Positions 11,644 to 44,800 of a DNA stretch of 64,000 nt are shown piece after piece. The DNA lies in contig JYFJ02002037.1 in NCBI GenBank assembly GCA_000934665.2, forward strand, positions 1-64,000, given 5' to 3'. Position numbers and translations under genes: made by a program. Numbering within the stretch: position 1 is the first letter of the stretch; every line of letters begins with the position of its first letter. The DNA comes from Catajapyx aquilonaris. Taxonomy: Eukaryota. Under the pieces are notes generated by a model. It worked only from the letters and a program-made list of their open reading frames with translations. It did no database searches and was not told where the DNA came from.

Positions 11644-14272
11644 CAGGGTGTCTATTACTAGTCGACCTTCCATCCGGCAGTGCACTCATTGGCCCAAAAC
11701 AAGTCATAAATGTAGGGATGAGAAATGTTGAGGCAGTAACCGGTAATGAGATAAACGATGATCAAGATGAGGTCGCCCCTAAGACAATCACGGCCACCCA
11801 CCCACCGGCTTTTGTGCGGGAGGAGCGGCAATCGGTTCGACTCCCTCGCGTGTAGGGGTTGCCTAGGGGGCAGGATATGAACCCGACATTGCAACCTGAG
11901 CACGAGACGACCTTGCTAAATCCTGCTTGTTTTGACCTTGTAGAGTGCATTTAATGCATCTGTTGCCCAACTGAATGGAAGATGGGGTGACCAAGGTGAA
12001 TAATGACAGCCGAATCACCTGAACTGTTTATTATCCCCACACTGGTTTAAGCCAAGTACTCAAAACATGCCGGAAATGGCGGGATAGTCAATTTTCTGGA
12101 TTTTCGATACTAATGGCAATGTACAATCTTCTGATGGTGACAATTCCAGCACACAGAGCTTAGCAACAAAAAACGGTTCTGGCCAGTATTTTGTCCAGAT
12201 CAAAAATGATGCCGATGGAAACAGGCCTGGAGAGTTTCAAGTCACTTGAGCAACTGCTCGAAATGGCCACCTTCCTGTTGTACGCAAAGGTGCGCTCTGG
12301 CTCTGATAGATGCTCAGACAGCTGGATGTGTGTCTCCTGCTGCGGAATACATTTCTGCAAAGCAGGTGATGACACGATCCTGCAGCTCCTCCACACATCC
12401 AGGGACCGTGGCATACACTGCTTCTTTCGCCCGTCCCCATACGTAGAAGTCAAGTAGGGCGATTATGCAGGCCACGGTGTGGGTCCTTTTCTGCCTATCC
12501 ACTTATGCGGGTACACCGGTCTAGATGCCTCCGGATTACTCGACCGTAGTGGGGTGGCGCTCCGTCCTGCTGCCACCACATCCCTTGGGGCAGTAATTGA
12601 TTGATTGAATAATGAGGAACCAAAACAACTAAGGCTATCTAAATGTGTTGGTGTCAGTTGGAGATTACATGTAGAAGAGAAAGAAGAAGACATGAAACAT
12701 ACACCTTGGCACAGGTTTAATGGAATCTCTTCCAATAATTCTGGCAGGTCTTCCTGGATAAATCTCAAATAGCTGTCAGCGGTCAGCCTTGCTGGCAAAA
12801 ACAATGGTCCGATGATGTGATCTCCCAGAATGCCGGCCCACACGTTCACCGACCATTTGATTTCGAAATGTGCCTCGCGGTAGCAGTGTGGGTTGCCATG
12901 AGACCAGTGGTGCGAATTGTGGCTGTTGAGTATGCCCTCTCGGGTAAACGTAGCACCCTCAGTCCACAAAACCTTCCCATAGCAAGGAAGGTATCATTCT
13001 GCCGTAGGAGCCACTCACAAAAATCCTTCCGCCATGGACGGTCTTCAGGACGTAGGTCTTGTACAGTACAGAAATGATAGGGGTGCTGGCAATCACGGCT
13101 CAAGTCTTGCCATACCATTCCCTCTTGCCCTTGTGTATGAGACGCCCAATTTGTCTCGTGCTGGATTGGGGATCATCCTTGACAGCCTTCAGGATGGTTT
13201 CCCCTTTAGATGACATGAGACCTCCTGGACGACCACCCTCGCGTCGGGCTAGGAATGTTCCCGTTTCTCTAAGTTGCTGATCTGTGCCAAGGAACACCTT
13301 CTTATCGGGATGTCGCCAACTGGGAAATCTGGTCTGATACAGACGAGCTGCTGCCGCTGAGTCACCATCACATGCACCTAGAGTCAGGTGCATGTCGGCA
13401 TACTCAGCGTGTGTGTACGTCGTCATGTTGCCTTCTGCCGTCTTCTCTGCACTTCGGAGGCATTTTGTCTTGTGTGTTGTCACATGACCATTATTTATAA
13501 AATGTCAAATACACCCTCAGTCAGACTGCTGGACCCACCGTGCCATGATGGTTTCCATCATTTCAGCACGATCCATCGCATAATTGGTGCCCATTTTCAC
13601 ATACGCGATAAATGGCAACATTTTGTGCGTGGAAATGGGACATTAGTGCAGCACTTGTATCAATGGAGACATGCATTAAAATTGTTGATTTGACTTACCT
13701 CAGTCTCAACTTTAAGCATGAACCAACGTATTTTTCAACCTGCTTTAGTTTCGCTCCCTCTGTGTGCTGGAATTGTCGCCATCAGAAGATTGTACAATGC
13801 CATTAGTATCGAAAATCCAGAAAATTGACTATCCCGCCATTTCCGGCATGTTTTGAGCACTTGGCTTAAACCAGTGTGGGGATAATAAACAGTTCAGGTG
13901 ATTCGGCTGTCATTATTCACCTTGGTCACCCCATCTTCCATTCAGTTGGGCAACAGATGCATTAAATGCACTCTACAAGGTCAAAACAAGAAGGATTTAG
14001 CAAGGTTGTCTCGTGCTCAGGTTGCAATGTCGGGTTCATATCCTGCCCCCTAGGCAACCCCTACACGCGAGGGAGTCGAACCGATTGCCGCTCCTCCCGC
14101 ACAAAAGCCGGTGGGTGGGTGGCCGCGATTGTCTTAGGGGCGACCTCATCTTGATCATCGTTTATCTCATTACCGGTTACTGCCTCAACATTTCTCCTCC
14201 CTACATTTACGACTTGTTTTGGGCCAATGAGTGCACTGCCGGACGGAAGGGCAACTAGTAAGGAACACCCTG
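11644..14272 (-). mobile_element. Tc1/mariner-superfamily transposon with ~515-bp TIRs and a pseudogenised transposase
   Basis: TA TSD; TIRs about 11644..12158 and 13758..14272 starting CAGGGTG. Transposase runs from ATG 13426 (YTHAEYADMH..GACDGDSAAAARLY, DUF4817-type HTH) through NSHNSHHW, WSVNVWAGI, QQDGAPPH, WIGRKGPTPWP and LDFYVWG to about 12220, broken by frameshifts, stops and a ~130-bp insert. Confidence 0.92.
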
Positions 14273-16452: not shown

Positions 16453-16966
16453 CCCTGGAACCGTGCCATGCCAACGAGTATTACGGCAACCGTGCCGTGG
16501 GGTCTTTTCGGACCCCACCATATTTTAATTTTTATTAATTATTATATACTTTTCAATGTATTGACTATATACAATCATTCTTTGAACAATGCATAAAAGG
16601 ATCGTTAATTCAAAATGAACCTGCACTTCCTGTTATATACTGTAAAAAAGGGAGGCGGAGTGGCGCTGCGGTAACGTACGCGCCCACGGATGTTAAGGTC
16701 CCAGGTTCGATCCCAGCCCGGGGACACCCCCTCCATCTCGTGCAGAGTTCAGGGTCACCTCTGGCTTTGTCTCGGGTGGTATTTCCACAGACTAAACCAC
16801 CCGGGGGAGTTCACTAAAAATGGCCACCACGTCAGATGCACTGCACTTGCACATCCCCTCCTGCCCGTGGGCCCGGGCGCTTCTCAATGGCTCCAACTTG
16901 TACACTCTGTATGATCAAATAATGAAGGTCCGTGCCGAACGCCGAAAGGTGAAGCACTACCCCCAC

Positions 16967-17012
<46 letters not shown>

Positions 17013-17105
17013 CTGTAAAAAAAATGGCAAAAGTTCATTGTAATCATCATTTTAATGCATTTTTTCCCTTGGGGTCCAAAAAGACCCCACGGCACAGTTC
17101 CAGGG
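16453..17105. mobile_element. Non-autonomous piggyBac-like element containing a SINE
   Basis: TTAA flanks; TIR CCCTGGAAC(C/T)GTGCC; subterminal inverted GTGGGGTCTTTT. Confidence 0.82.
16650..17008 (+). mobile_element. tRNA-derived SINE family B
   Basis: A-box TGGCGCTGCGG, B-box GGTTCGATCCC, (TTA)n tail, 14-bp TSD tatactgtaaaaaa (16636..16649, 17009..17022). Confidence 0.85.
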
Positions 17106-17953
17106 TTAATGAAGGAACCTTCAATTTTGTCAGTTAATGCAGTGTGACCTACACATCATCTGAAATTTTCCATAATTTGCTTTCGTACAACCAGCCTGGT
17201 GTAAGAACTACAATTCTTAAAATGACAATGACGTAATTTATCCCTCATGTTATCATTTTCATTTACACTTATCTCAACTAGATGAGAAACGTCAGATTAC
17301 ATAATATTCAGTTGTACTTTGCACTCAAAGGCAGCTATTACATGAGTATTTGCTTGCTTGTGATATCAAAGGACCTATGCACCAGCACAAGATATCAGCA
17401 ATGGGTATGGCTGCACTGCCATGTCATTGGGTTCTGAAACGAGTGCAACACTTATCTTGTCACATGTGTGCCACATGCTTGTGGTGTGTCTAGGCTGAAA
17501 GAAATTTACTGAGATCAAAGGCTTGAAAGAGTGACATTTGACACAAACTAGCAACGGGAGAAATAAAAATCAAAAACAAAAGATATCAGCATGTTATATT
17601 AGCTTAGAATCATGATAGATAATAATCCACATTATTGTTAACTCCCAACGAAAGCAGCCTCAATCTTAACAAGTTTTAAATGGACATCTTTTACTTCACT
17701 TTTAGGTGTCCACAAGATAGGCATAAGCATTGCATATGGCAATCAACTTGAATTTCCACACCATAAAAACACCTGCCATTAACATCGGATCACTGAGAAA
17801 AGAAAAATTTTAAAAAAAAACGCACTTAATGTGTGCCTCTGCTTATGACTAGCAGCCTTACAACTCAAGCCTAAAAAATAGACATCTCATTGGAAATTAT
17901 CACAGATTGGTGCCCTTTCAATCAAGGTTTAGAACACCTTATGTGTTACAGAA

Positions 17954-20900
17954 TTATGTCGGCACTACAGGCCATAAACTGTCTTTAAACCTCTGCTCGT
18001 ACACTTTTTCCCTGTGTTCCGCTTTTAGCACTGGATCAAGGGTCTCAGCCAGTCTCTCCACACGATTGTTGAAGCGCATGCGGTCTCTGGCCATAGTTTC
18101 CCAGGGACCACACCTTGCCTGCCTGTAGGCATAGTCCCATGCCAGCATCAGGTGGACCTCTGCTAATTCCCCATCTGAAGCAAAGCATACCTGAAATGAC
18201 AAAACCAGCCATTAGAATTTCTTAGGTTATCAACACATGCAAAGTGTACACTTCACAGTTAGGCACAGCATTGCACACAAAACTGTCACTTGAAAGTTAC
18301 CCTGTTGTTATTACATACAAGTATCTGCTGTGTTTAGGAAAAATGCCACACCTGCAATGTGCAGTAGAGTTGATAGTTACTTGTCCACCAACCATCATTC
18401 GACTCCTGCAACTGGAGTGCATTCATCTACAACAGCCTAACGCAGTCTGACAAGCAACACTTGATCTTATTGCATAATGCAGGTACAGCTTTCTCCTCCC
18501 AAACAGCAAATATGCTGTATGTTACTATGCAGCATAAGTTTAAAGTGTCAAAATACCATGAAGCTTTTCATCTGATTTCACGCTTTTCATTTGTTACTTC
18601 TCCATATTTCTTAAACTTGGCTCTTTAAACAGGTGATCCAAAGCAACAACAATGAACTAATCCCATAACAGAAGCATAAGCATTTCTTGGATGTTTTCTT
18701 CACTTATAATGGTTACCTCACAGTCCCACATCCTCTACCCCACACACATTGACAGCAAGAGAGAATTGAAGTATCAGTGAGCAATGCAAAATGGCTTGCA
18801 AACTGTTCACAAAAAAAATTGTAAAGTTATGTTATCATTTTCTGAATTGGAATAATGAAGAGAAAACAGGATAGCCTTTAAGGCCCGATTTCTCGAACAG
18901 TGGTTCAAATGTAAACCCGGTTCAAGTCCGGTTTAATCCCAGTTAAGAGACTTTGAACTGGGATTAAACCGGACTTGAACCGGGTTTACATTTGAACCCC
19001 TGTTCGAGAAATCGGGCCTTAGCCACACACTAGACAGATGACATGCTACATTATTATTACAACCAGAAATGTGATACCTTGATATGAGGAGGTAATAATT
19101 CCTCAGCAAGTCATTCTAGAATATCTAGATTATTTCTTTTAATACCAACCTTTCTTCCCTGACTTTTCTTGGGTTCTCCCTGGCCCACTTTCCCTTGGTT
19201 CTTAAAGTCCAGCTCAAATTCAATACACGCATCCACATAGCAAATGTCAAACTCCTCATCATCAGTGTCACTACTGCTATCAATTCCACTCCAGTCCAAG
19301 TCCTCTTCAAAATCCTTGCCATTATTGCTCTCAGATTCATCACAAAAAATTATGCTGATGCTATCCTCACTGCATTCACTGGCACACCTGGAGCGCCACG
19401 TGCAGGAACTACCACCATCTGTCACATCCTCATCTAGGCTTGACTCGCTGTTGCTGTGGCGGCTGTTGGGGGTGCCTAGGACCTGCGGGCTGCTTCCAGG
19501 GCTGCTTCCAAGGCTGCATCGAGGTGATGCTTGGAGTGGCGATGATTCAGGTACAGTCACTGATAGATGTTCTGTTGCATCAGGTGGTGTCATGTATGTG
19601 TGTGAAGTTTCTGGTTCACAGAGAGATGAAGCAACCTTTTGCGCGCGACGTCCCTTCCTTGCCCTGGCTTGCTTCTTGGCATCCTTCCGCCTCTTGCGAT
19701 GCCACAGAGCCTCATTTTCCTCGCGTCGAGTTGGCCCAGACATCGGAGAGGTCGGCATCATCTGAGACGTCGGCTTGCTTTTCCTAAAAATTCAAGCATA
19801 GCCATTAGACATGGAACACCAAGACTGGCTTTTTCACTTAGGAATACACTAAAATTTCATGCTTTAACCTTGAATGTAATCTCAAGATCACGAGAACAAA
19901 ATCCCCACTTATGTTAACGGACTGCTTCCAAATGTCCAAAAGACATGTATGGCATTGACTAAAGCATTTTGACCAGAACTTACATAGACGGTCCTAAACA
20001 CAAATAACGCCATTTAATGTCCAATTCTATGCCTGTCATTTTCCAAAACAAGTTTAAATTGGATGGACTCATACCTGGTAAATGCGACAAATTTTTGCAC
20101 ATTACCCATTGATATTTGCCTAACAACTCTATTCACTATTGATGATGCATAGCACCAGAAACTATCCAGCAAGATAATTGGGCATAATATTACAAAACTT
20201 GGCCTCTTCTCATTTAGGGCCAAAAGCAAACAATTATTGCCAATTCTATCATCACCACCTGCTTTTAGGTTTTTGTTATAAGCCCTCGTTCTGACGTAAC
20301 ACCCAAACGTCCTTGCGTGACAATTCCCTACATGTTTCATCAACACTGAACAGACATGGCTGAGAAAATGGCAGTGGGAAAATTTGGAACATTAACTCTA
20401 TTATTTAGCCTACTTTGCTCACTAAGATTTTAATGCTAATACTGGCTGTAACCCAAAATGAAAGCATCATCACTCTGCAAGAGTATATTTTCACAACCCT
20501 CTGTTAATAATTATTTCCCAACTTACTTTGAGTCATAAGCCTTTCCTCGTGGACTTGTCTCCTTAGTTGCCATATGACCCATTGCCTTGGCCACCTCTGC
20601 ATACGACTGCTTCGGCTTAGTAGTTTTCGGTGACACCTGTTGGTCTCCTGATGTACATTGTTTCAGTTTGGGATAGTCCTCTGGTGGGCCAATCAATTGG
20701 CAAATCCTGGTATAGATTTGCTCACCAAGACTGTTATCCACTGATCTTGGATTGCCAACCACCAGAACCTTGCTTCCAACAATGCCACCCACCAAAAACT
20801 TTACTACGTTACATTTGGGAGAGGTTGGCGTTGGAGGAGGCGACGATGATGGTGGGTGAAAGTCAAGTTTTGGGAGCGAGACTTGTCGACGTGAAACAAG

Positions 20901-21371
20901 TTTCGACCCATTGTTGCTCAGTCTTGTACCGTTCGGAGGCCCACTGGGCACTCCACAGCCATTCATGCCCATCTGCTTCATGCAATTAGGCCCAAAAGGT
21001 TCACCACAAATGTTACTTCCACTAACTGCAGGCATCTTGTTAAAATGGGTGTGGCTCTGGTTCCCGTTCTTGGTGAGTCCATTCAGTTTTCCACACCATC
21101 CTGACATGAAAAGTCCCGGTGTAGCAGGCTGTACTGGATAAAATTCCTGCACCATATGCGGCATCAGCATCTTGACTCCCTGCTTAAATGGAATGTTGAT
21201 CCTCTGAATGTGCTGCATTGGAACGTTGATTCCTGGTACACACTTATGCATAGAGTCAAACCCATGACCAAATGCCGTGTTCAGAACTGGTACGGCCATG
21301 TTCAGCGGTGTGATATGGCGTCTGTCATGTAGCACATCCGACACGTTCCCCATCATGGAACAGCACGGCAT
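17954..21371 (-). CDS. PPP1R15: Protein phosphatase 1 regulatory subunit 15 (GADD34/CReP family, eIF2-alpha phosphatase targeting subunit); complement(join(17954..18190,19150..19783,20527..21371)), 571 aa
   Basis: The last exon encodes the PP1c-binding/ICP34.5-like domain (AWDYAYRQARCGPWETMARDRMRFNNRV). Splicing AAG|GTTGGT (19149) to tttcag|GTA (18190) creates the RVxF motif RKVCF. Exon 2 is Ser/acid-rich. Donor GTAAGT at 20526 and acceptor tttttag at 19784 are both phase 2. Total 1716 nt is divisible by 3. The start ATG (context CAAAATG) is inferred. Confidence 0.92.
18881..19019. mobile_element. Near-perfect hairpin MITE (Harbinger-like) in PPP1R15 intron 2
   Basis: About 64-bp arms with one mismatch and a short loop; TTA/TAA flanks. 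Confidence 0.85.
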
Positions 21372-21380
21372 TTTGCTGGC

Positions 21381-21554
21381 TCAATACTTGAAGCGAATAG
21401 AGTTCCACTTCACTCTGCACTTTGGCTTGTCCACAGTGTCAACCACAACACATGGCGCACTGAAGAAATGATGCATAACCCACAGATGATGCACAAGGTG
21501 TCCTTCACTACTCACGCTCAATCCTAATTCCTCACTCGAATTTAATGATTCCAT
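21381..21554 (-). promoter_or_regulatory. Upstream ORF (57 aa) in the PPP1R15 5' leader, stop 9 nt before the main ATG
   Basis: ATG at 21554 in strong context (AATATGG), second in-frame ATG at 21476, TGA at 21383..21381, then gccagcaaaATG. uORF control is established for PPP1R15 genes. Inclusion in the mRNA is inferred. Confidence 0.7.
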
Positions 21555-21599
21555 ATTGCAATGGGATGAGAAAATCAGGGAAAACACTCGTTAATGTTC

Positions 21600-22304
21600 C
21601 AAAGTAATGAAAAGTTCTGCACTGACTCAGCTCAACTGTTGATTGCCTCCAAGTAGGGCTGATGAAAACATTGCCAAGTATGTCGAAAATATGCGAGCGA
21701 AAAGGTATGAGTACACTGGACTAAAAATTGACATCAACTATCTGATTCAGCTAGGCCATCTTGTGTAACCATTCCGAACATGACGTCACGAGCGCAAACA
21801 AGGTTGTCATGTTGGATGATTAAAAACATGTAAATGCCAATTTTATCCGAATATTTGTGTATTTTAACGTATCACATCAGGTTAAACCTAATTTTGATAC
21901 CAAAACTTGGAAATCATTATTATACCCAGGTACATTGTGATCGACCTTGATTCTTGGGAGATGAGTGGCAACGTCTGTGACGTTGTTTCCAGAATGTCCT
22001 ACCAGTTTCCGGGACTGATCCCTATTTAAGGCAATAATTTAACAAGTTGACTATATCACCCGCATGTAATTTAAAAATTTGCATAATATTTCCCGATAAA
22101 CTTATTAAATACGATCTCATGTGGCACTTGCATCAGCCACACCCGCACAAGGTGGGTCTAATATGCGCTCGTGAATGACGCAGTAAAATAGCGGCCATAT
22201 TGGCACAGTAGCTTTGACTACATTCCAACCTGCCCATATGTCACGTAGTAACAGACAGGTAACAGGCTGCGTACGTGATTGTTGTCAAGTTGTCAGCGTA
22301 AAAG
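21600..22304. promoter_or_regulatory. Divergent promoter region shared by PPP1R15 and the FAM114A2-like gene
   Basis: Start codons face apart 933 nt from each other. The region has a perfect CRE/ATF palindrome TGACGTCA (21781..21788), AP-1 TGACTCA (21623..21629), a YY1/Pho-like GCCATCTTG near 21755 and an Inr-like TCAGT on the minus strand at 21625..21621. Confidence 0.65.
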
Positions 22305-25300
22305 ATGTCTAGTTCGGAGGGCGACTTTGAGAGTGCGGATGAGGGAGAAGAAGCCCTTGTTGCTGCACATGCTGGAGGAGGCGAAGGCGAAGAATGCCAT
22401 GGGAAGGAAGACCATGGAAAGAAACCTGGAGAGGAGGAACCATACGTGGATGAACCATATGAGGTAGCATCAGAGCAGGTTCGAGATGATGTAAATTTAG
22501 GAGCGGTAGCTGATAAAGAGTGTGGACCCGAAAAATTGAAGGCAGAAGAGCAGGTTGAGAAAGTCTCGACACCATTGGAGTGCAGCAGCGTTGAAGAGCA
22601 TCTGCTGATATGTTCTCAGTCTGAGGTTATGCATGGAGAAGAAACTCATGTCCCTCCGGTAAAATCTGCTAGTGAGTCTCCTGAGAAGAAGAAGACTGGG
22701 CCAACTAGACGTGCCAAGCAGGAACATAAGCCAAAGAATCCTGGCCCCATGAAACTTGGGACACGTATACCTAAAGAAAAGCTGGAGCAGATGGAGAAAG
22801 AGGAAGCTGTTTCAGAACCAGATGTGATTCCAGAACCAGATGTGATTCCAGGACCAGAGGATCACGCAGACCCAGACGTGTGTAAGGCGTCCGTACCAGA
22901 GAGCATTGTGGAGCCACCCTTGGAATCGATTTTAGACAGACTGGAGGACAAGAAGGCTGCCCAAGATGTAATAATAGCATGGGTTTGAACAGGAGGTCCA
23001 GAGTGAGGTTTAGAAATATTGCTACAACTAGTTCTTGTTACTATACTAAGGCCATGTTGCACTGGCTCCCGAAAAATTTGTGTGGCTCTTCTTCGGCGAA
23101 ACAAATTTTCCAGAAGCCGGTGCAACCCAGCCTAAAAGTGCTGCTTAATTTGTGATTGAAAATTGTTGGCATAATTGCAAAATTCAGCTTATGATGTGTG
23201 TGATTGGCAACTGAAGTGAATGCACCTGGACCACCTATAAAGTTCTAAACATGAAATCCGTTGTCTTTAAAATAATTGGTTGTGTTACTGCAGAGTGGTG
23301 GTGGTGGATGGAGTGCCTGGGGGAATTGGGGCACGAGTTTCATATCAACAGCTACTACAGGAGTGTCGACATTCACCACCCACGTCTCTCAGGGAATTGG
23401 TGCTGTCATAGACACTGTTGAGTCAGGTGTTGTGGGTGCTCCTCCACCTGAGGAACTGGCCAGGCAGATGGAAAGTGAACATGATCAACAGCCTGTGGCA
23501 ACTTCGACCTCAGATCCTACTGACCCTTCTGGTAAGTAGGGTGTAATCTTAAAGGGTTGTAGGATTGGCAAAAATATCTTTATTTTAAATTTAATGCTAA
23601 CATCATATTTTGAATCAATGATTTTTTTCTGGTTTTTTGAGCCCAACTTGCTGAAATACAGTACCTATCAGAAGAATATCCTGATATTTTCTCTAGATTG
23701 TAAAAAGATGCCAAAATAGTGTTCATTTATTGATGGTCCTTCATGGTAATGCCTTGCTTCCAGATCAATCATCTTCAAGTGGGTCGCGGTTCTCGATTGG
23801 AAACATCTTGCGTGCAGTGGAAGGAACTAGTAGCAAGGTTCTATCTGGCGGGTTGGATACATTAGAGTTAATTGGACGCAAAACTATGGATGTACTGCAG
23901 GAGGGAGACCCTCAGTTGAGGAAAAAAAGGGCATTGCTGATGCATTCATCAGGAAGTCCTGTGCTCTCACAAGTGCTCCGAGAAGCTAAAGAAGCTGCGG
24001 AAAAAGAACAGGCCAGGGAGTTATCTGACAGGTGCGTCTATTACTACAATTTTATGGAGCATAAGTGTAAAAGTTTAAGTATCATTGTGATAAATCAGAG
24101 TTGAAGAGGTGGAATTCAATTTGACCAAGTGTCAAATTGTCCCTTGTGACATGTCATGAGTGATTCCATCAAGCAGGAGAATTGTACAGGAGTTTTTGAA
24201 AAATGTGCCATGGGTAAGAAGCTTGTAACATATTGAGAGAACCTGTAGGTGTATATATGTCTTGGCGAATTATTGTGATTAACTTCCTGCTCCGTCTCAT
24301 CCTCCCTGCTCCCTCCAGCCAGGCCTACTCCCAGAAGTTGTTCACCAATAGTATTCAAAATCTCGAAGAGAGTTTTGCATTGATATTCTCATCCAGTAGG
24401 TAAAAGGGAGGCTGGTTGCCTTCTTACAAGGGAACGACCAAGGTCACTCGCCTCCGATTTGGTTGAAACTTGCTTGAGGGGTCACTCGTGTGCGATAGAC
24501 ACAGTGGTGGAAGACTCGGAAATGGCTATACAGTGGCATCTAGGACTTTTACCACTGTGTCTATCGCACGAGTGACCCCTCAAGCGAGTTTCAACTGAAT
24601 CGGAGGGGACCGACCTTGGTCGTTCTCCTGTTAGAGCTGCCTGGAACAGAGGGAGGGATATTGTATGGTGAGGGGAGTGTGCCACCAAAGCTATGTTTGT
24701 ATGGATTCATGGGTTTTACTTTCCTCCCCTACATGCTGTTTCACCCTCTCTTCCATCTGTCTTAGAGCTGAATTAAAATGTGTTCACTTCATTATGGCAC
24801 ATTTTATAATTATCCAGCATTGATCTGCTGAATTTCAGGAGTAAATAGTCAAAATGCCTCTGCAAACACCATTTCAGAGAACACGCTTCTTCTACCTGCA
24901 GAGGGAACAGTGTTAAACTACCCCCATTCCACAAAATGCGGGGGAAACTTATGCCCCTACGTGGGCTTGTATAAAAATCTCAACTAATTGGAATCGCTCA
25001 AATAACTTGTTTAAGTTAGTGATGAGAACGTTTTTTAAAGCACTCAATATTTCTTCGGAATGTGAAAGTCAGTCACTCTGTTTATCCTGCATTGAAAGAA
25101 ATGGATAGTTTCCAGATGAGTGTCATTTTCTTCAAGTAAGGTGTAGCATATTCCTGGTTCCATCTGGTTCGTTATAAACAGGAATTCTTTATGTGCGGGA
25201 AATGCGATTTTATTCATTCTTTTCTCAGGAAATGAATGCCTTCGCTGTTACCATGCCTATAAACCATGTTAACCTGATCTGACCTGCCCATGTACCAAAT

Positions 25301-28300
25301 AGACCTCAAAAATATCACCTGAAGAACCCAAAACGACAGTGTATAACCAGGGTCATGGTTCACATAAACTGCCTCTCTGCAAGGTTGACATGGTTAACAC
25401 TTGCTCTGTTATCCATTGCTCCCATACTGCCAGCCTGATTTCGAGTCATCTTCATGTCCTATGCTCTCCATGCTTACCTGCCCTCACCACATAACTCGCC
25501 AGCCCCACCCTCCCTCCACCAGTCCACCCCGGCCGACTTCTCTCTTCCCAAACCAAACCTCAGCAGTCAGGGTAAACTTTATTTCCCATATACATCAATG
25601 ATGTGCCTTTCGACTTTAATATGCTGGATAAGTGTCTCTGGGGACCAGTGAAATCGAGTGGTATGTGCTGGAAAGCGTTAAAAGTGCACTATAAGTGGGG
25701 AAATTTACCATTGGCCCTTATGGGGCTGATCAAGGGACCAGAAGAAGAGGGCAATAAAAGCAGGGGATAGTGTTACGTGCGGGAGCGTTATATCAAGGTC
25801 TTACTGTATTTCAATGTTACCTTGCATGTGAGAGAAGCTTGTATCTATGTTGGCCTCTTATGAAGTACTTTTGGTAACAGTTCTTCAAATCCACAGCCCT
25901 GACTCGACAAAGCTGTGCAACACACCCAGTTTTAGTCGTCTCTTTGATGAATACCACGGGTTGGTCCATCTGGAAGCCCTCGAAATGTTGTCCAGGGAAT
26001 GTGACACGAAGCGTGAGGCTTGCCTGTTACATCTCGCCCGAGAAGAGTTACTTTTTGCGATGGCAGCGATGTCTGGGCTTCAGAGTGCGTGTCAGATTGA
26101 TGAGGATGTGGAGCCAGATGCAGAGAATCAAGATTTTGCCAAAGTTGCTTCAGATCTGGTAGCTGAATTAGGGATTTCTGGAGTGAGTGGCACCAGATTA
26201 ATAGAAGTCCAGTCAGAGGTTGTTAATTCTCTTGAGGAAGCTAAAAAGGATGACGGCCTGGAGATGGAAGATATTGAGAAGGTTGCTATAGAGTCTCTGG
26301 CTAAGATCACAGCAGCAGCTGTCGAATTCTATCACCGCAGCGCTGAGATGATGCTAGTTGAAGAGGAAAAGGAAGCATCGGCTTGGGTAAAGACACTGCG
26401 AAGGTATGTTGAAAACTACTTCAACTCTCGGCATTTTTGCGATAGAGCGGACATGAAGCGACGATTATTTTTTTCGTTGAATACCGCATTTGATCACACC
26501 AATCGGATGCTCAACATCTCTACTAAACATTGCCAACCTTAAAATTGGCCAGTGTTGCTGTTCTTTGGCACCAGCTGCTCATACGTTCAACTGTGCGCGC
26601 CAAAGGCCTTTTGGTGTCTGGGGACACGCGCGGCTTTTGGCGCCTCTGTAAGCATTGCCATTCATTCGATCACTTCTCAAGTGTGTCTGTTGGATGCAGC
26701 TTGATGTCCTCTTTCGATTGGTGTGCTTAAATTGTCGGAGGGTGATCTCTGTGTGCTTCAGTTTCAGTAACTAACCAGAGTCATCCGAAAGCTTTGGTTC
26801 GTTACCAAAAATTACAAAAAATTCCTGTACACATCTTATGCTAATGATTTGGAGCGTCAAACTTGGAAACCTCTGTGGGAGTCGCGTAATACAGCAGTGT
26901 GCAAAGATTCAGCCCAATTCCATACCTCCATGTATTTATTTGGACGGTAACGAACCAAGCCATTTTCCTGCCGCCGAGCGTGCTCCCTCCGATCTCGGCT
27001 CAGATAATAAGCAAATCCACGCCCAATAATGCAGAAATTTTTATGTAATGGTTTTCAATGGCGCTGATTTCAGATCCGATGTCAGAAATTCAAAAATCAA
27101 AATGGTTGATCCAATATGGCAGACAGCATGTGCAGAGAATTGGACAGATATACAGTATTAGCGTCAAAATTAGTTTACGGCGGCTTTAGATTTCAAATTC
27201 AACGTAAAAAAGTTACAAATCAAAGTGGCGCGATGTGTTATCAGGATATGTCCTGATGCTACCGCCGATTTTATTGGGAGGAAGGGGGACAGATGCAGCT
27301 CTTCAATAGTTCTTATTTATGATGCTGAAAACAAATTTTCACGAATCCTTCATGTTATAAACAGTTGCCTCTATTTACAATGCCACTGCAAGATGGGTGG
27401 TCCGGAAGTTAATTGTCTCTAGCGGTCAAGGTGGCAGGTGGCAGGTAGTGGCAGCTAGTCTTTGGTTCTTCTCAGTCATGAGAGCCTCCCGCTTTTTATA
27501 GGCCGTAAATCAAAAAATTTGCATTTATCTGAATTTTTGCAGGTCTGAATTTATTGGAAAATTGACTGAAATGACCCATTTTCAAATACCTTCATTTATA
27601 GGCTTAGTAAATTTTTATAGATGGTCACATTATAACTCCTTATACAGTCATGCATATGCATTACAATGTGGTGCAGCTAAAATGGCTGCTCTCAGAGGTC
27701 AGAGGTCAGAGGTTATAAATTTTTGAATAAACCATTATTAAAACGTTTTCCCCTCTAGTCAATTCATAACTTCATTGATGTGTCTGTGTCAGCCTGGTCC
27801 CCAAAGGCTGGTGTGTAGGCAGGCAGCACCCTTTTCATATACTAGGTTACATCCAACATACACAATCATCACGGCATAGTCCCATGATGAGGCATAGTCA
27901 GCGATGACCAGGTCATACGACCCAGCCATCTCAATCGACCAATACAGGAGAATCCTCTGATGACTGATCAGTGTCATGATGTGTCTCGTTTTAATTATGT
28001 ACGCCCTGAAGTGGTAAAACAGCTCACAAATACTACCCGTGAAAAGGTTCTGAACGGTGGAAAATCGCACGCCTTGGTTCGTTACTTTTTTTCTTGGTTC
28101 GTTACCGAGAGTTTTGTTGCGCTACGATGCAAAGAAAGCAGACACCGGTACGGCAAGGTGACCAATGGATTCCTCGCACTTTTCTTCTGTAGAGCATCTC
28201 TATACTGCCATCAAAACCACTTAGAATTCGCAGAGTTATTACGCAATGTAACCCGGTGCAGAAATGCGTGTCCTCGAAACTTTGGTTCGTTACCGTGTTT

Positions 28301-31300
28301 GTTCTCGCTCCTCGGGCGCTATCGAATGATATATTTTGTGTCGGATTTGTGGCAAAATTCAGCCCTCTGTACCTGGAACTCAATAGAAAAAAAAAGTATC
28401 CCCAAAGGTTTACCACAAGCATGGAAAATCACAATGAAAGTTGAAAAAAATCGTCCGAACCTTGGTTCGTTACCGCAAAAATGCCCCTCTTTCTTTCCTG
28501 ACAGCCATGGTACAGCTTAAATCAATTGGTGAAGGTCTTACTTGCACCTGCCTTGTTTCAGTACTTTCATTCCTCCACAGAGGTCTTACTACCCTTTTTT
28601 CACTGAAGGGAATGATTTTGCTCTTATTTCAGTTCTTTTTTAAACCCCTTTGCTACCAGCTATACCACCATCGCCTAGATTTTCTCATACACGTACTCTG
28701 ATGATAAGGACAAGATATTTTGCAAATAATAACAGCTATAGTGCTATACTTATCACACTTACACGTTTATGCTCTACAGTCTGCACTATGAATGTGTTGG
28801 AGACGATTTGCCTCTCCTAGAGGCCCCTAAAATGAGTTTCACAGAGATGGTCGTAAAAAGACTAAATTCGATGCTACTGGCCAACTGTTAGTCTGCTTTA
28901 ATTATGAAATAGCCTGTACATTAAAATATACGCAATATCTACATTCAGAATTAAATCAGCTTTAGAGTTAGCCGGTAATACAGGGTAGGGCAAAAGTCAT
29001 GGGCTGGTTTAAACGACTCAGCATGGCGTAAGTAACGAACGATTATATTTTAAAAAATTACACTACACAGAGAAAGATATGCCATTAATGGATCAAGGTC
29101 CAAAAAAGTCACTTCTTGAAAACAGCACCGGATAGATGTCCACCTTTGCGGGCAACACATATTCCTCCAAACGCGGGACGAAACCCTTCATAACACACTC
29201 CAGCACGTCCAGGGAAATGTTTCTCACGGCGTGTCTTATCTGATCCCTAAGATCAGCCAATGACTGAGGACGTGTGGCGAACACCGAACAAATAAAAAGT
29301 CAAGTGTTTCCTGGGAGGGTCATTTCGAGATTTGGCAACATTCCTTGGCCGTCGTGGTCGCCGGATTTGACCACCCCCGACTTCTTGTTGTGGGGGTACC
29401 TGAAGAGTTTGGTGTTCGCCACATGTCCTCAGTCATTGGCTGATCTTAAGGATCAGATAAGACACACCGTGAGAAACATTTCCCTGTACATGCTGGAGTG
29501 TGTTATGAAGGGTTTTGTCCGGCGTTTGGAGGAATATGTGTTGCCCGCAAAGGTGGATATCTATCTGGTGTTGTTTTCAAGAATTGACTCTTTTGGACCT
29601 TGATCCATAAATGGCATATATACAGGGTGGTCGGTAAATGGCGGACAAGCTTCAGGTAGCGAGATTCCTTGTGAAAAACCAGTATATGAAAGGGAAGGTC
29701 ATATTGCTCTACGAGGCCCGGTTAGGGCTCACGAGGTCTCCAAAGTTTGGACCAAATCATGACGTCACATCCGCCCGCAAAATTTAAACAATACCGTATC
29801 GCTACAGTACACGGTTTGTTGCCATGTTGACATCCCCCACATTTTCACCAAACAATGGAACCGTATCAACTCCCTCGGACGTTGCCAGGCACGCGGCGAC
29901 GACGATATGGCAATGCCTGGCAACGTCCCAGCCAGTTTATACGGTTCCATTGTTGTGTGGAAATGAGGGGGATGTCAACTTGGCAACCCCTGGCAACGCA
30001 CCGCGGACGGTAGCGATACGGTAGTGTTTGAATTTCGCGGGCTGATGTGACGTCATGATTGGGCCCAAACTTTGGAGACCTCGTGAGCCCTAACCAGGCC
30101 TCGTAGAGCAATATGACCTTCACTTCCATATACTGATTTTTCACAAGGAATCTTGCTACCTGAAGCTTGTCCGCCATTTACCGACCACCCTGTATAATCG
30201 TTCGTTACTTATGCCATGCTGCGTCATTTAAACCAGCCCATGACTTTTGCCCCACCCTGTACCTGGCTTTGGCGATATAGCAGGTAGCAAAGGGATTAAT
30301 AGTACAGTTGAATCTGGATATAACAGACTTCAAGAGGCGTGGAAAAAAGTGTTATAACCGAGGTCTGTTGTAGCCATATCATCACTTTTGCAACGAAAAC
30401 AGAGATTTCTGCTTTACATATGCCTGTAATGCGCACTACTTCATACAGATTAATGAAATCCATAAAAAATGCGGTTGGAATAGGTCCTACTGGCGCGTGA
30501 ATGGCGGGAGGATAGTAGTCAGCGGGGGCAGCAGGCTGAGTCGCAAAGGCAAGGATAAAGGATAGGCGTGTATCCGCTGAAGATAGGTCTGTATCCGCAA
30601 CGAAGGAAGGTTAGGCTTGGTTAGGTTAGGTTGGTACAGCATACCCCCTTCCAAAATCCAAAAAATCGATACTTGCATCCTTGCCTTTGCGACACAGCCA
30701 AGCTGCGCCCCGCCACCCTACTCACCCTGCTGCCTCCCGCACGCCAGTAAGGCCTACGCCTTCCAAAAATGCATTAGCTCACCCAAAAATTATGCAGAAC
30801 CAAAATATACAAAATTTTCTTCTGCTGTCTCCTTTTTGGAAATTTGATACCTGAAACACTATATTTTCCCACCGAGGGTCCAAGAAATGGTCTGTTATAC
30901 CCGAGGTGAGGTGAAAATGAGTCTGCTATATCAGGAGTAAAAATACACAGGGCCTTATGGAAGCATGCCAGGACCGGCCTTTATAACCGAAAGTCTGTTA
31001 TAGCCGAGGATGTTATATCTGGACTCAACGGTAGTAAGTACCATACGTTCACCCTAGAGCAGTGCAGTGGTGTAACATGGCCAACAATATTATTATAATG
31101 TGGCGAGTTGGTAAACAAGAATTGACCTTGCTGGGTGATGGAATCATGAACAAATGAAGTAATGACGGAAAAAATATTGGGGGGNGGGCGCAAGTGTAGC
31201 ATGTGGAAGAGTGGAACTGTTTGCTTTTGCACACATATCCGGACCGCCCTATTGCACATTCGGACCTTTGACGAATAGTTATTGAGTGGAAAAAATAAAA

Positions 31301-38800: not shown

Positions 38801-41800
38801 TTCTTCCACCACATTCTCCAGGACAACCTCTTCTTCTTCACTCTCACTCTCTTCATCTTCATCCTCCTCCTCATCCTCCTCTTCCTCCTCCTCTTCTTCT
38901 TCCTCATCCTCCTCTTCCTCACTGTCCACTTGCTGCTCCAGCTTTTCCAGGTCCTCCAGCTTCATACTAACTGCTGTCTGGACCACTTCTGCATCTGCAA
39001 TGTAATTACATCAGATATCATAAACAGGTAGTAAATATTTACAAGTAGCCATTTCATTAAAGGTCAGCCTAGTATTGCCCAACCACCATCAAATGATCCA
39101 TCTGTTGTACTGTACATGTCTGCAACTGTTTTACACGAAATCTAAGGTAGTGGAGAGCATGCATGAAAGAGACATGATGGAATGATTGGTGGTCATCAGA
39201 GAAGTAACATCCTTTGCCGAGATTCTCAAAGCCAACTTACAATCAAAAGGCACCAATGTATCAACCCCCCTACATAATGCTACCTAAGAGCCAGATGTAT
39301 GCACACAATTTAAGGGAAAATTTCAGTTTATATCTACTACCCATTATTGAAAAATCAGAAATGTCTGTAACCTGTGTTCATACAACCAGATATAAGCATG
39401 CAAAATGTGACTACAGACGGGGGAAAAGGGTGTCAGTTCTAATGACCACAACAATTTATTCCCCTAAAGGTGAATGTAGTTCACCAGTTACTGCAAGAAC
39501 TTGTTGAATACTGCCTGCAAAGTTTACTCAAGTTTGAAAGCAGTCCCATATTTGGCGACCTTTACCAACCTTGATTCCTGGTCAGCGTGGAAGTTTGCGA
39601 GGATATGATTGTGGACTCATCGCTGCTTTCTTCCTTGATGGTCCCATGCCTGTACACACTCACATCGCTCTCCTGCTTGTCATGCCTATGTTGTTGCTGT
39701 GGTTGTTGTTGTTGTTGCTGCTGCTGCTCTTCAGCCTTTCTGTTGTTGTCCACCTGCATGAAGCTGAAGCTGAGGATGTTGTACCACTTGACCAGGATTG
39801 AATCAGGGCTGAAGTCAGCTAGGCTGACTTGTGCTGATCCTAGACATTCTCCCTTTCCATCCTGTGACACGGACCACACTGTGATCTGCAGGGTCTTGGT
39901 GCACAGTTTGTTTAGGGGGACAGGCAGAGGAAAATTCTCCCCAAAAGCAGGCCTTTGCAGGTCAGAAATGGCAGTGGTGCTGCAGGCCATCACTGAGCTG
40001 GAGGAGCTCGGGAGAAGAGCTGCCTTTATACAACTATGGAAGAAGTAATTGGCATAAACAGGGATGTCACAAAGCATATGCTAATGTAAGAGACTGGCAT
40101 TTCTATTGATACTTACACCCTGTGGTTTTCTGGTATGGAGAGAGCTGCCAAGTTGCGAGCCCTTTCAATGCCAATGTGAAGAAGACCGTCACTCACTGAG
40201 TACCTGCAATGAGACATATGTTATCATTCCACCTCATAAGTAATAAGTAGTAAGTAAGTAATGTATTTATTCCAATTAGGAGAGAGAAAAAGTGTCTGGG
40301 TCATCATGCAACACTCATTCCAATAGTAATTCTTTCCTACTATATACAAATGCCCATGCTACTTAAACCACCTACTGCATGAGGAATAAAGATGACAAAA
40401 GCACTGACACACAAAAACTTGATGCATTTTCAAATTATTGCGTCACAGTGTTATGTTATCCAGTGAAACATGTTTGCAAAGACCCTGCATCTCACATAAA
40501 CTTGTCCTGTGGAATTTTTGCTGGTCCTGGAGGATTTTCAACATTTTTTTGTTGTATACAGGGTGAAGGGAAACTCGCGGACAATCGCCAGGTAAACTTA
40601 TAGTACTCGCAAAACGAATATATGCATGTGCAATTAGTTTTTGGCTCTGTTGCATAGTTAATGCATATGGCGCCCTTGAAGTGTAGAGGGCCAGATGGTG
40701 GAATATGAGGCAAAAACAACAAAGTGCACGGGTGTCGTAGCTGGATTCTTACTCTGACAGGATTTGATCACCTATTGCACATGGACAATGTGTTATGGGA
40801 CCAGAGGCCCTCGAACTGACTTTTGCTTCTTTATAGCTGGCGGAACGGATGTGACATCACGAAACTTAGACGGCACTGTATGCATTAACTATGCAACAGC
40901 ACCCAAAACTAATTGCACATCCCTATATTACTTTTACGAGTACTATCAGTCTATCTGGCGATTGTCCACGAGTTTCCCTTCACCCTGTATAACAGGAACT
41001 GTTCAGTATAGAACATCTGGAGTATACCACTTTTGGCATTATATAATTCCATGACAATGCAATGCTAACCAAAGCCATCTTGTGATTTGTATAACAATGC
41101 ATTCACAATACCAAATGATAACAAGCATCTAACTCCATAGTTTTTACTCACCTGAGTTTGATCTGCACTTGTGCAGTCTCCAAGTTCATCTCAGTAAGAG
41201 CAGGGTTGTCACTTCCCCTCCCATTGCAAGCCTCAAACACCCCACTATCCCCAGCCACACTCTCATCACTCACTGCTGCTGACACTGATCTAGCTGCACC
41301 TCCACCTGCTGCCCCCCCTACCACTGCTACTGCTCCCTCTTTCACCTCCTCGGGCCCGCCCTCGGATATTGGTGACAATGCCTCAGAAGGCGGTGGAGCC
41401 ACTTTCACTGCCGGCGCCACAGGGGGCTTGGCTGCCAGCCTGAGTTCAGCCAATCGCTCCTCCAAGTTAACACGTTCAGCCAGTAGTCGCTTGTGTTCAG
41501 CTGAGTTCAAAAATGCTTGTTCATATGGTGGGGGAAGCCCCAACTCATAAGGACTAACAGGTGGGCTCACTGATGAGAGGGAACTACGAGGTGACAGTGA
41601 CAGTTGAGGTGGAGTTGCACTGTCATCCACAACAACAACTGGTGCTGATTGTAACAACCGCTCAACCCTCCGATGCAAATCAACCATGTTGACCTGTTCT
41701 GGGTGTGTGCACTGAGGCATCCCATAAATGTCAGTAAAGCTGAGGCTACTGAGGCTGCCCCGGCTTGAGGTGGAGAGGCTCCCAAGGCTGGAGCTGGAGC

Positions 41801-44800
41801 TCATACTAAGGGTTGAAGCAGAGAGGAGCCGCAGTTGACTCTCCAGATGTGCCATTGCCTGCAGGGCCTCTTTGAGCTGTACAAGAAGGACCTGCTTCTC
41901 CTCATGGAGCCTTAGACGATCTGATATGGCTCGATTTGACATCTCCACTGCAGCATTCAGGTCCTGCTCCAGCTTGCGAATCTCTGTGCGTATTGCTTGC
42001 ATCTCCTGAGGAAAATAACAAACTTTATGATCACACTGAAAAGTCAGTCACTAAAATATAGCAGTTTTTTAATGGCATCAGTTGCTCAGTCTTTTGAAAG
42101 GGTGAAAATCCACACCATAGATCAAGTATCAAACCACAAATCGTAAGGTTCGTAAAACTTCTCATGTGAAATTACATTAACAATTACAGGATCCATACAA
42201 AAACAGATAAGAGAAGTACAGCATTATTCTACATTATGATTTGAGATGTATTATAATTGAAGGGGTCGGTGCAATACCGCCCTAACCCACCAAATGACAC
42301 AAATTGAGTTAAGCACACTTCCATGTACTAGACTCATGTATCTAATAAAATCCATTGAAATTGTGCAGTTTCTGCCATCGGTCACTGAGAAATCAAATGA
42401 AATAAGTCACATGGTATATGGGATGTATATGGCCTCTCAAACTTTCAACTGCAGTTTTCTCAAAATCAGGTTTGGGAGGGTTAGGGCAGTATTGCACCGA
42501 CCCCTTCAATTATGTACCACAATACATGATCAATCTATAGTTCAAGTTCACCTCATTGACATTCACTAGAAATTTCATTCTCACAGATTCTCAAGGCTAT
42601 ACACATTGGGTTACTCAAGATGTGCAAACAAATTGGCTATGATGGTGTTACATCTTCACCACTTACTACTACTAACCTGAAGCAACATGAAATCAGCAAT
42701 CTTTTCTTATTGCAGCAAATTTTAAAGGCTTTTAAAGTGTTTTTCAATCCTAAATAATGAGGTTCTGAAGCATGAATGCAGAGAATTCTTCTCACCTGTT
42801 GTGACCTAGACCTAGGTGTAATGCTCCTGAGCTCCCTGAGAAGTTGCTCCTTCTCCTGATAGAGCAAAAGCCTGTCCTTATCTGACTCAGCCTGTCCAGG
42901 AGCCACCTCTCCTTCCAGCTCAGCCAGTCGATGCTGAATCTGTTGCACCCTCTTCCTTGCCTCATCATACTGGAGTCTCATCCGAGCCATTTCCGCTAGT
43001 CGAGTCCCAATGGGGACTAGCTCTCCTGAGAGGTCAGTTTGAGAGGCAGTGCTAAGCTTCTCCGAAGGTATGCTCAGAGTGGACACGTCTGGGGAGGATT
43101 CAGACAGCTGGAGGCGGGTCAGATCGTCCTTTAGTTTCGATAGACTTTGCATCAGCTCTGCCTTTTCCTTCTCTCCAGACAAGAGGGACTTCTGGATATT
43201 CCGTAATTCATTCACTATAGCCTGTGCCTCCGATATGTTATAGTAGCCACCCTGTGTTGCCAGTTTCTGTTCCACTCTGGAAGAGATTACAAACTGTGAG
43301 TCATACCTCGAACAGATACCTTTACATAATTTTCATGACAGACATATTGCTTCCACTAAAACAAAATGGATATGACCAGGAAACATAGTGCACCTATTAG
43401 GTTTGTTCCTGACAGCAACAGCTAAAATAAATAAATGACAAATATCTCATAACCCACTAAGTTTTGGTGTAAAATTAAAGCATTAACGAGAAAAACGATC
43501 TAAGGGCTGTTTCCATCAGTGAACTTTCATTTCGCACAATTTTATTTGTGGGTGTGACAGGGATTTTGCATATATTCCAATCGAGGACAATTTTTGTTCA
43601 ATTCAGAATGCCATTACTAAAATGAAATTTTTGAATATTTTCTGCATCACTAGCTAATTTTATCATGATTGCACAATCATGTTTTATCTGAAGGGTGGCA
43701 CACACAAAATCAGGTGTACACTATGTCATGAAATCACACCTAATCATGAGCACGTTCCAATGCTCCCTCATGAAAAATAATTACGAGTAATATTGTAATA
43801 CGGTGTAAAAAGAGGAGTGGCCAAATCCTCGGTTTTACGTATATTGTCTTGCAATTGCATCGTCCAATTTTGGACTTCTGCTTTTGAAATTTGTGGTTTT
43901 CATTTTTGTGAGCATATTTTGTGCTGGTGGAAACAGTCCTTAACTTATCAAGTGAGGTGATAGCAAACAAATATATATTTAGAGAATCCACTGTAGACAC
44001 AGCTTGTAAAAATTCCACAGTGCTATTATTGTTAAAGGTAAAAATAGAAATCTACTCCTAATCTTATTTAATCAGTTAAGTCCAAATGCATGGCAGGAAG
44101 CCACATTCCGCACCATTTTTCATGGGTGCTTATATGCGAACTGGCCCCAGTGACCAAAAGGTGAGGGGCATCAAATGCCAATCAATAACCCTTGCATACA
44201 TGGCACATCACTGACTTTCAATTACAGAAATGCAAAGGAATGTTATTTCTGCCTTAATTTGAATACCAACAATTTGGACTGACGTGCATGTACTAATTTC
44301 GGACAATTCTTATCACCACCATTCACTTCATCTAGTTCTCTGGATATTCATAAATATTATTTGTGCAACTTAATACTTTACTGTATGTGCTGCTCATTAA
44401 ATAACATTCACAGAAATTTAATTTTTGCCACATTTCCCCCACCTAACCCTACTGAATTTTCATTACAACAAGGGTCGAAATCACACTTACTGTGCCAAAG
44501 TCTCAATTCCTCTCTGCTTGTATGCCATCTCTGCCCTGATCTGTTCCAACTCCTGCTTCAAACGTGAAACCCGGTTCTTTGCAAGGGCCACATCAGCCTT
44601 CAAAAGGTCTGGGTCAAACTTCGAGCTAGTGCTGCTAGAACTGGAACACACTGAAATAAATAGACAAGAGTAAAAAGGTTAAACTCAGTCCTCATTAACT
44701 CATGCTTCTTGCACACTTGAATGCATCAAGAATTGTACAATTTCAATCCATGTACCGTTAACCTGCTATAAAACATACAATGTAAGCAACATCCCAACTT

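Follow-up and report, generated by a model that had tools for sequence, protein, structure and literature searches.

We conclude that the 57-codon upstream open reading frame (uORF2) located directly ahead of a PPP1R15-like gene probably acts as a cis-acting barrier uORF in the eIF2-dependent control of the PPP1R15 mRNA, in which case the act of translating it would matter rather than the peptide that it encodes. This reading is preferred because the anatomy of the leader, a spliced transcript contig, the identity of the downstream gene, the unstructured nature of the leader and the precedent of the gene family agree. The integrated stress response is brought to an end by PPP1R15 proteins, which in mammals and flies are themselves known to be produced under the control of uORFs. 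The locus adds another animal PPP1R15 to this picture, with a long last uORF that has a start codon in strong context and ends only 9 nt from the main start codon. Throughout, the window denotes the whole stretch of DNA that was analyzed, 64,000 nt in length.

The downstream gene is encoded on the minus strand in three coding exons, located at 20527..21371 (exon 1), 19150..19783 (exon 2) and 17954..18190 (exon 3, stop included). The frame that begins at the main ATG (21371; context AGCAAAATGC) remains open for 282 codons, and exon 1 is ended by a GTAAGT donor; joined together, the three exons give 571 codons and a stop. The exon-3 ORF matches the Pfam family PP1c_bdg (PF10488) with an E value of 1e-6 and 29 bits, the curated cut-off being 26.1. 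When exon 3 was searched against solved chains, six distinct sequences were returned at E values up to 1. Matches were found to human PPP1R15A (7nzm_C, E 2e-7), PPP1R15B (4v0u_E, E 1.2e-5) and the chain 4xpn_B (E 5.1e-4), and exon 3 also matches the viral mimic DP71L (9nb9_B, E 8.2e-4). The last codon of exon 2 is the K of a K-V-C-F docking motif, while exon 3 contributes the V-C-F of this RVxF motif together with the PP1-binding core. In the main protein the motif occupies residues 493-496, across the exon 2/3 joint and directly before the conserved core. The assignment of the gene to PPP1R15, made in an earlier note from the letters alone, is therefore borne out by PF10488 and by the solved PPP1R15A and PPP1R15B chains: the gene is a PPP1R15 homologue, whose product is predicted to direct PP1 to eIF2-alpha.

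Protein searches for relatives yielded 60 candidates with exon 3 and 892 with exon 1, none of which scored. Two metagenome loci, taken from 30 pattern matches to the exon 1 query, were rejected as orthologues, their 34% identity being confined to the Pro/Ser-rich residues 167-215. Intron 2 of the gene contains a near-perfect palindrome at 18879-19021, the 71-nt arms of which are 96% complementary and separated by 1 nt; its structure is reminiscent of a foldback element of the MITE type.

Transcript evidence for the locus is provided by a spliced contig of 2387 nt (record 4), which corresponds to 17655..21743 on the minus strand with no differing letters. Its three blocks (17655-18188, 19148-19782 and 20526-21743) join all three coding exons, and the gaps between them end in CT..AC on the plus strand, that is, in GT..AG on the gene strand, at the predicted introns. 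The exon 1/2 joint lies at 19782/20526 in the contig (cut +1). All contigs come from one public run (X1), the kind of which is not on record and which may share a project with the assembly. The contig of the neighboring gene is also spliced (22967/23294, GT..AG); run X1 therefore behaves as RNA, its contigs being spliced at both PPP1R15 and this neighbor.

The block 20526-21743 is free of gaps in the contig, and uORF1, uORF2 and the in-frame inner ATG of uORF2 at 21476 are thus retained in the mRNA contig. A splice that excludes 21554 and 21476, which the earlier note had named as evidence that would speak against its proposal, was looked for and is absent, both ATGs lying inside the assembled mRNA contig; the TGA of uORF2 is read identically there. 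The end of the contig at 21743 is not equivalent to the transcription start, and alternative starts that skip the uORFs are possible. Run X1 gives no cover over 21744-22255, which has no bearing on where transcription starts. The first base of the contig (21743, minus) is the A of TCAGAT, a sequence that resembles an initiator element and that we regard as a lead only. Just past the 3' end of the gene, run X1 shows a stack of contigs at 16500-17100 that is thousands deep and rich in variant letters and loose ends; this points to either an abundant repeat or a repeated element with high expression.

The leader covered by the contig comprises at least 372 nt and contains five upstream ATGs. uORF1 (21627..21734, minus strand) has 35 codons and begins at a weak-context ATG (21734; T at -3), which is the 10th base from the end of the transcript contig; from its inner in-frame ATG at 21671 it measures 14 codons. 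The stop of uORF1 is separated from the ATG of uORF2 by 72 nt and from the main AUG by 255 nt. uORF2 itself occupies 21381..21554 on the minus strand, within the spliced contig and in frame with the main CDS, and consists of 57 codons plus a TGA (21383..21381). Its ATG at 21554 is found in the context TGCAATATGG, with A at -3 and G at +4, and the spacer between its stop and the main ATG (21372..21380, minus) has 9 nt, GCCAGCAAA. The encoded peptide starts with MESLNSS and ends with CRVKWNSIRFKY. A mini-ORF of 4 codons (21439..21453, minus; ATG 21453) lies inside uORF2 in another frame. Re-reading of the sequence thus confirmed the initial description of an ORF of 57 codons whose ATG lies in strong context and which ends 9 nt before the PPP1R15 start.

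uORF1, uORF2 and the main CDS have one frame in common, their ATGs (21734, 21554 and 21371) being 180 and 183 nt apart. We have no explanation for this 1-in-9 coincidence and take it to be probably due to chance. Folding of the leader gave a z value of +1.23 relative to shuffled sequences, 89 out of 100 of which were at least as stable, and a leader without notable structure fits a scanning mechanism. A search of Rfam over the whole 64,000-nt window gave no matches, and hence no SECIS or other recoding element.

The length of uORF2 is only mildly unusual when compared with chance. Among the 2674 ATGs of the window, 10.3% open frames of at least 57 codons, and 3.8% of Markov-1 simulations with uORF2's own make-up (3000 of 79,264) stayed open. 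Codon usage was assessed by log-odds trained on 1941 codons of the window. uORF2 scored 0.103 per codon, compared with a mean of 0.154 (sd 0.082) for windows of true CDS, an optimistic value as these are training data. This score was reached by 4 of 136 null ORFs and, with the three training sets, by 1.1%, 3.4% and 0.7% of mononucleotide shuffles. Among the 3000 composition-matched (Markov-1) simulations that stayed open, it was reached by 12.5%, or by 16.3% and 10.0% with the other two training sets. The codon usage of uORF2 is coding-like, yet within what its own dinucleotide make-up gives.

No Pfam family was found for the uORF2 peptide at E values up to 1, and a word-index search among proteins of 31-100 aa detected no relatives. 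HMMER returned one match (P0001) among 1,835,955,588 representatives; this is a 1600-aa repeat protein, eight repeats of which match residues 24-41 only and not the RVKW motif discussed below, and it was discarded as a fortuitous match that the repeats had multiplied. The ESM Atlas contained no usable match, and the recognition value of the peptide, 1375, was below the level reached by 91 of 100 known-family proteins. Since uORF peptides are rarely called as genes, these blanks are weak evidence.

According to the mechanism that we propose for the barrier, scanning 43S complexes would travel along a leader of 372 nt or more that lacks notable structure and would encounter as many as five AUGs there, and most complexes that reach 21554 would initiate there owing to the strong context (A-3, G+4). 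After reading the 57 codons, these ribosomes would reach the stop and terminate 9 nt short of the main AUG. The combination of a long uORF and a short spacer is expected to allow only poor re-initiation, and would thus keep the basal synthesis of PPP1R15 low. Once eIF2-alpha is phosphorylated, more ribosomes would bypass the AUG of uORF2, either through leaky scanning or because re-initiation after uORF1 is delayed, and the subunit with which the phosphatase terminates the stress signal would thereby still be made under stress. Translation of uORF2, repression of the main ORF and its relief under stress are what we infer for this mRNA. The frequency of ORFs of such length in the window, where they are not rare, speaks against the barrier. 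The codon score, which is above that of 132 of the 136 null ORFs, leaves some room for a selected peptide, though 12.5% of the open Markov-1 simulations match it.

The earlier note had gone further and proposed that the leader yields a PP1-binding micropeptide. Its observation of an RVKW motif near the C-terminus of the uORF2 peptide, preceded by basic residues, holds: the motif is encoded at 21405..21416 (minus) by codons 47-50, and the residues ahead of it are K-P-K-C. RVKW conforms to the loose RVxF pattern only. This pattern, [RK]x0-1[VI]x[FW], is present in 23 of the 226 ATG-initiated ORFs of the window that encode 40-80 aa, its stricter form in 15 and its W-only form in 6 of them; when only the last 15 residues are considered, the counts are 7, 4 and 2 out of 226, respectively. 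Shuffling the uORF2 peptide 20,000 times produced the loose pattern in 14.8% of cases. The frequency of RVKW in uORF2 is accordingly no higher than chance. The motif also satisfies the loose consensus [RK]x0-1[VI]{P}[FW]. The available text of PMC4794898 puts the loose RVxF consensus in about 25% of all proteins and uses instead the extended pattern [KR][KR][ACHKMNQRSTV]V[CHKNQRST][FW]. Measured against the latter as given there, K-C-R-V-K-W fails because of the C at position 2, and G-R-K-V-C-F of the main protein fails as well, at position 1. Since the main protein's own motif also fails, the extended consensus is not decisive.

In its full form the proposal states that uORF2 gives rise to a stable 57-residue micropeptide, the C-terminal RVKW of which docks into the RVxF groove of PP1c, and that this peptide is made while PPP1R15 is off and lost under stress. 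We consider this very improbable. The fit of RVKW to the loose consensus, the lysines shortly upstream, a tail that need not fold and the presence of uORF2 in the mRNA contig speak in its favor, as does the thematically neat coincidence that the gene's own product is predicted to bind PP1 through K-V-C-F. These points are set against a motif that occurs at chance level in the ORFs of the window and, going by the accessible part of PMC4794898, in a quarter or so of all proteins, against the failure at the extended consensus, which is not decisive, and against a peptide with neither a Pfam family nor relatives nor a usable match in the ESM Atlas.

Inhibitor-3 (residues 39-45 of PfI3, PMC4794898) is a small PP1 regulator that docks through a short RVxF-type motif ending in W. 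It resembles the uORF2 peptide in its small size, its probable lack of a fold and its basic-V-x-W stretch; it differs in being a conserved protein with proven binding, whereas the uORF2 product is a predicted peptide with a motif at chance frequency. A parallel also exists in mammals. Binding of PP1 by the uORF peptide of Ppp1r15a was already proposed in a 2021 preprint (10.1101/2021.12.11.472232), in which docking motifs were noted and a complex with PP1 was modelled, and the idea of a PP1 ligand encoded in a PPP1R15 uORF is therefore not new in outline. The docking motifs named in the available text of the preprint are LQPP and FWQP, not RVxF. The same text reports that the mammalian peptide was undetected by mass spectrometry in PP1 immunoprecipitates, which weighs against the corresponding proposal here, and that PPP1R15A protein levels were unaffected by a synthetic form of the peptide. 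In the literature that we searched by titles and the beginnings of abstracts, no report of a uORF-encoded RVxF ligand of PP1 was found, and none was found that pairs CPuORF with PPP1R15. Taken together, the claim of a PP1-binding micropeptide is unsupported, the motif being at chance level, the extended consensus failed and the peptide being without family or relatives. In the very doubtful case that it is true, one mRNA would encode a reciprocal, translation-switched pair of ligands for PP1, with a small binder under normal conditions and an eIF2-alpha-directed subunit under stress, and a PP1-binding leader peptide, if real, would add a new level to the control of the phosphatase.

The remaining readings concern the effect of uORF2 on its own mRNA. 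The peptide could have been selected for stalling rather than for PP1 binding, with the nascent C-terminus of uORF2 slowing termination or elongation near the stop and queued ribosomes blocking the main AUG. Such sequence-dependent action in cis has a model in the human PPP1R15A uORF, which the available text of the preprint (10.1101/2021.12.11.472232) describes as length- and sequence-specific, with polyprolines at its C-terminus. It would also suit the geometry of the leader, as a ribosome paused at a stop 9 nt from the main ATG would cover that ATG, and the rank of the codon score above 132 of 136 null ORFs is in its favor. However, the uORF2 peptide has only two prolines, isolated from each other at residues 34 and 44, and its last 15 residues contain a single one (residue 44), without a C-terminal polyproline. 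Moreover, no relatives that could show a conserved C-terminus were found either among the proteins of 31-100 aa or among the 1.84 billion representatives, and the codon score does not exceed what the dinucleotide make-up of uORF2 gives. We therefore regard stalling as unlikely.

To a similar degree it is unlikely that uORF2 is fortuitous, an ORF that arose by chance in a leader rich in AUGs and that by itself regulates little or nothing. The 10.3% of window ATGs that open at least as many codons, the five upstream ATGs of the covered leader, and the lack of a family, of relatives and of more than a low language-model recognition for the peptide are what one would expect from such a frame. Nevertheless, uORF2 combines a strong AUG with a stop 9 nt before the main AUG, and any translated uORF in this position must affect the main ORF. 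Only 3.8% of the simulations with its make-up stay open, and long uORFs are the rule in the PPP1R15 family. Finally, uORF2 and the main CDS are set apart by one TGA and three codons, and ribosomes that read through or recode the TGA would produce PPP1R15 with an extension at its N-terminus, an extremely improbable alternative. The ATGs of uORF2 and the main CDS are 183 nt and thus 61 codons apart in the same frame, but frame sharing has a 1 in 3 chance. Neither a SECIS nor any other recoding element was detected in the window with Rfam, no protein with a uORF2-like N-terminus was found among the 1.84 billion representatives, and the spliced contig shows the same TGA without differing letters.

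The region upstream of the gene contains sequences that deserve mention in their own right. A perfect palindrome of the CRE/ATF type, TGACGTCA, is found at 21781-21788, upstream of the PPP1R15 contig and 38-45 nt away from its 5' end. Four such sites are present in the window where 0.56 are expected, and none of 100 shuffles reached this number. In mammals, ATF4 drives the transcription of GADD34 through an ATF site, and the palindrome at 21781-21788 could be a candidate for a stress-responsive promoter element. The sequence TGATGCAAG at 22127-22135 (minus), located in the intergenic region between two divergent genes, resembles the C/EBP-ATF response element. The divergent neighbor (22256-24101 and 25832-26539, plus strand) begins about 500 bp from the end of the PPP1R15 contig, and its exons match Pfam DUF719 (FAM114A-type) with an E value of 1.8e-28; the two genes probably have a common bidirectional promoter region. 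Elsewhere in the window, two exons of a WWC1/KIBRA-like gene are located at 41151-43332 on the minus strand (Pfam PF25802, E 6.6e-31 and 8.4e-20). A search of the ESM Atlas with a WWC1 exon named Chordata as the most frequent group, a weak lead drawn from few records, and none of the results marks the source animal as an insect. Open frames at 12466-13504 (minus) and 29268-29600 (plus) look like remnants of mariner/Tc1-type transposases, one of these frames having a weak match to the DUF4817 helix-turn-helix family at E 4.5e-4, below the cut-off.

Returning to the barrier reading, we compared the leader with those of known mRNAs under uORF control, each as described in the available text of its source. 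The long uORFs of SLC35A4 and MIEF1 (PMC4383229) are likewise found in stress-resistant mRNAs, stress resistance being inferred in the present case. They differ in showing protein-type conservation, with the Pfam family PF15054 for SLC35A4, whereas uORF2 has no Pfam family. The delayed re-initiation leaders of ATF4 and crc (PMC4383229, PMC5881181) share with the present one the order of a short first uORF and a long inhibitory uORF beside the start codon, and the 72-nt spacer between uORF1 and uORF2 would permit a stress-dependent bypass of the kind described for these two. In contrast to ATF4 and crc, where the last uORF runs into the CDS in a different frame, uORF2 stops 9 nt before it and is in frame.

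Within the PPP1R15 family itself, the layout fits what the available portions of PMC4383229, PMC10743859 and PMC6070289 contain, in agreement with the initial suggestion of a uORF-controlled leader. In human PPP1R15A, a 26-codon uORF is a barrier, the removal of which raises the level of PPP1R15A protein, according to the accessible text of the preprint (10.1101/2021.12.11.472232). The present gene has in common with human and mouse PPP1R15A (GADD34) that the barrier uORF is the last one before the CDS; the uORF of PPP1R15A has 26 codons and a polyproline C-terminus, and uORF2 has 57 codons and no polyproline. According to PMC10743859, conservation of PPP1R15 uORFs extends as far as Drosophila. 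The dPPP1R15 mRNA of the fly carries seven uORFs, the translation of which is inverse to that of the CDS, as the accessible part of PMC6070289 states. The likeness to dPPP1R15 is that of an invertebrate PPP1R15 mRNA with several uORFs, number and not sequence being compared.

The leader of human PPP1R15B (CReP) is likened to the present one by layout and not by peptide sequence. In the available description (PMC4383229) it has uORFs of 8 and 52 codons in one frame, the second of which alone confers resistance to eIF2 inhibition. Here, too, two uORFs lie in one frame and the second is long, with 57 codons compared with 52. The first uORF has 8 codons in human PPP1R15B, whereas uORF1 has 35, or 14 from its inner ATG; the two uORFs are separated by 21 nt there and by 72 nt here, and the distance from the second uORF to the CDS is 75 nt there and 9 nt here. 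By analogy with these relatives, our results support the view that the design of PPP1R15 leaders with a long last uORF may be old and general.
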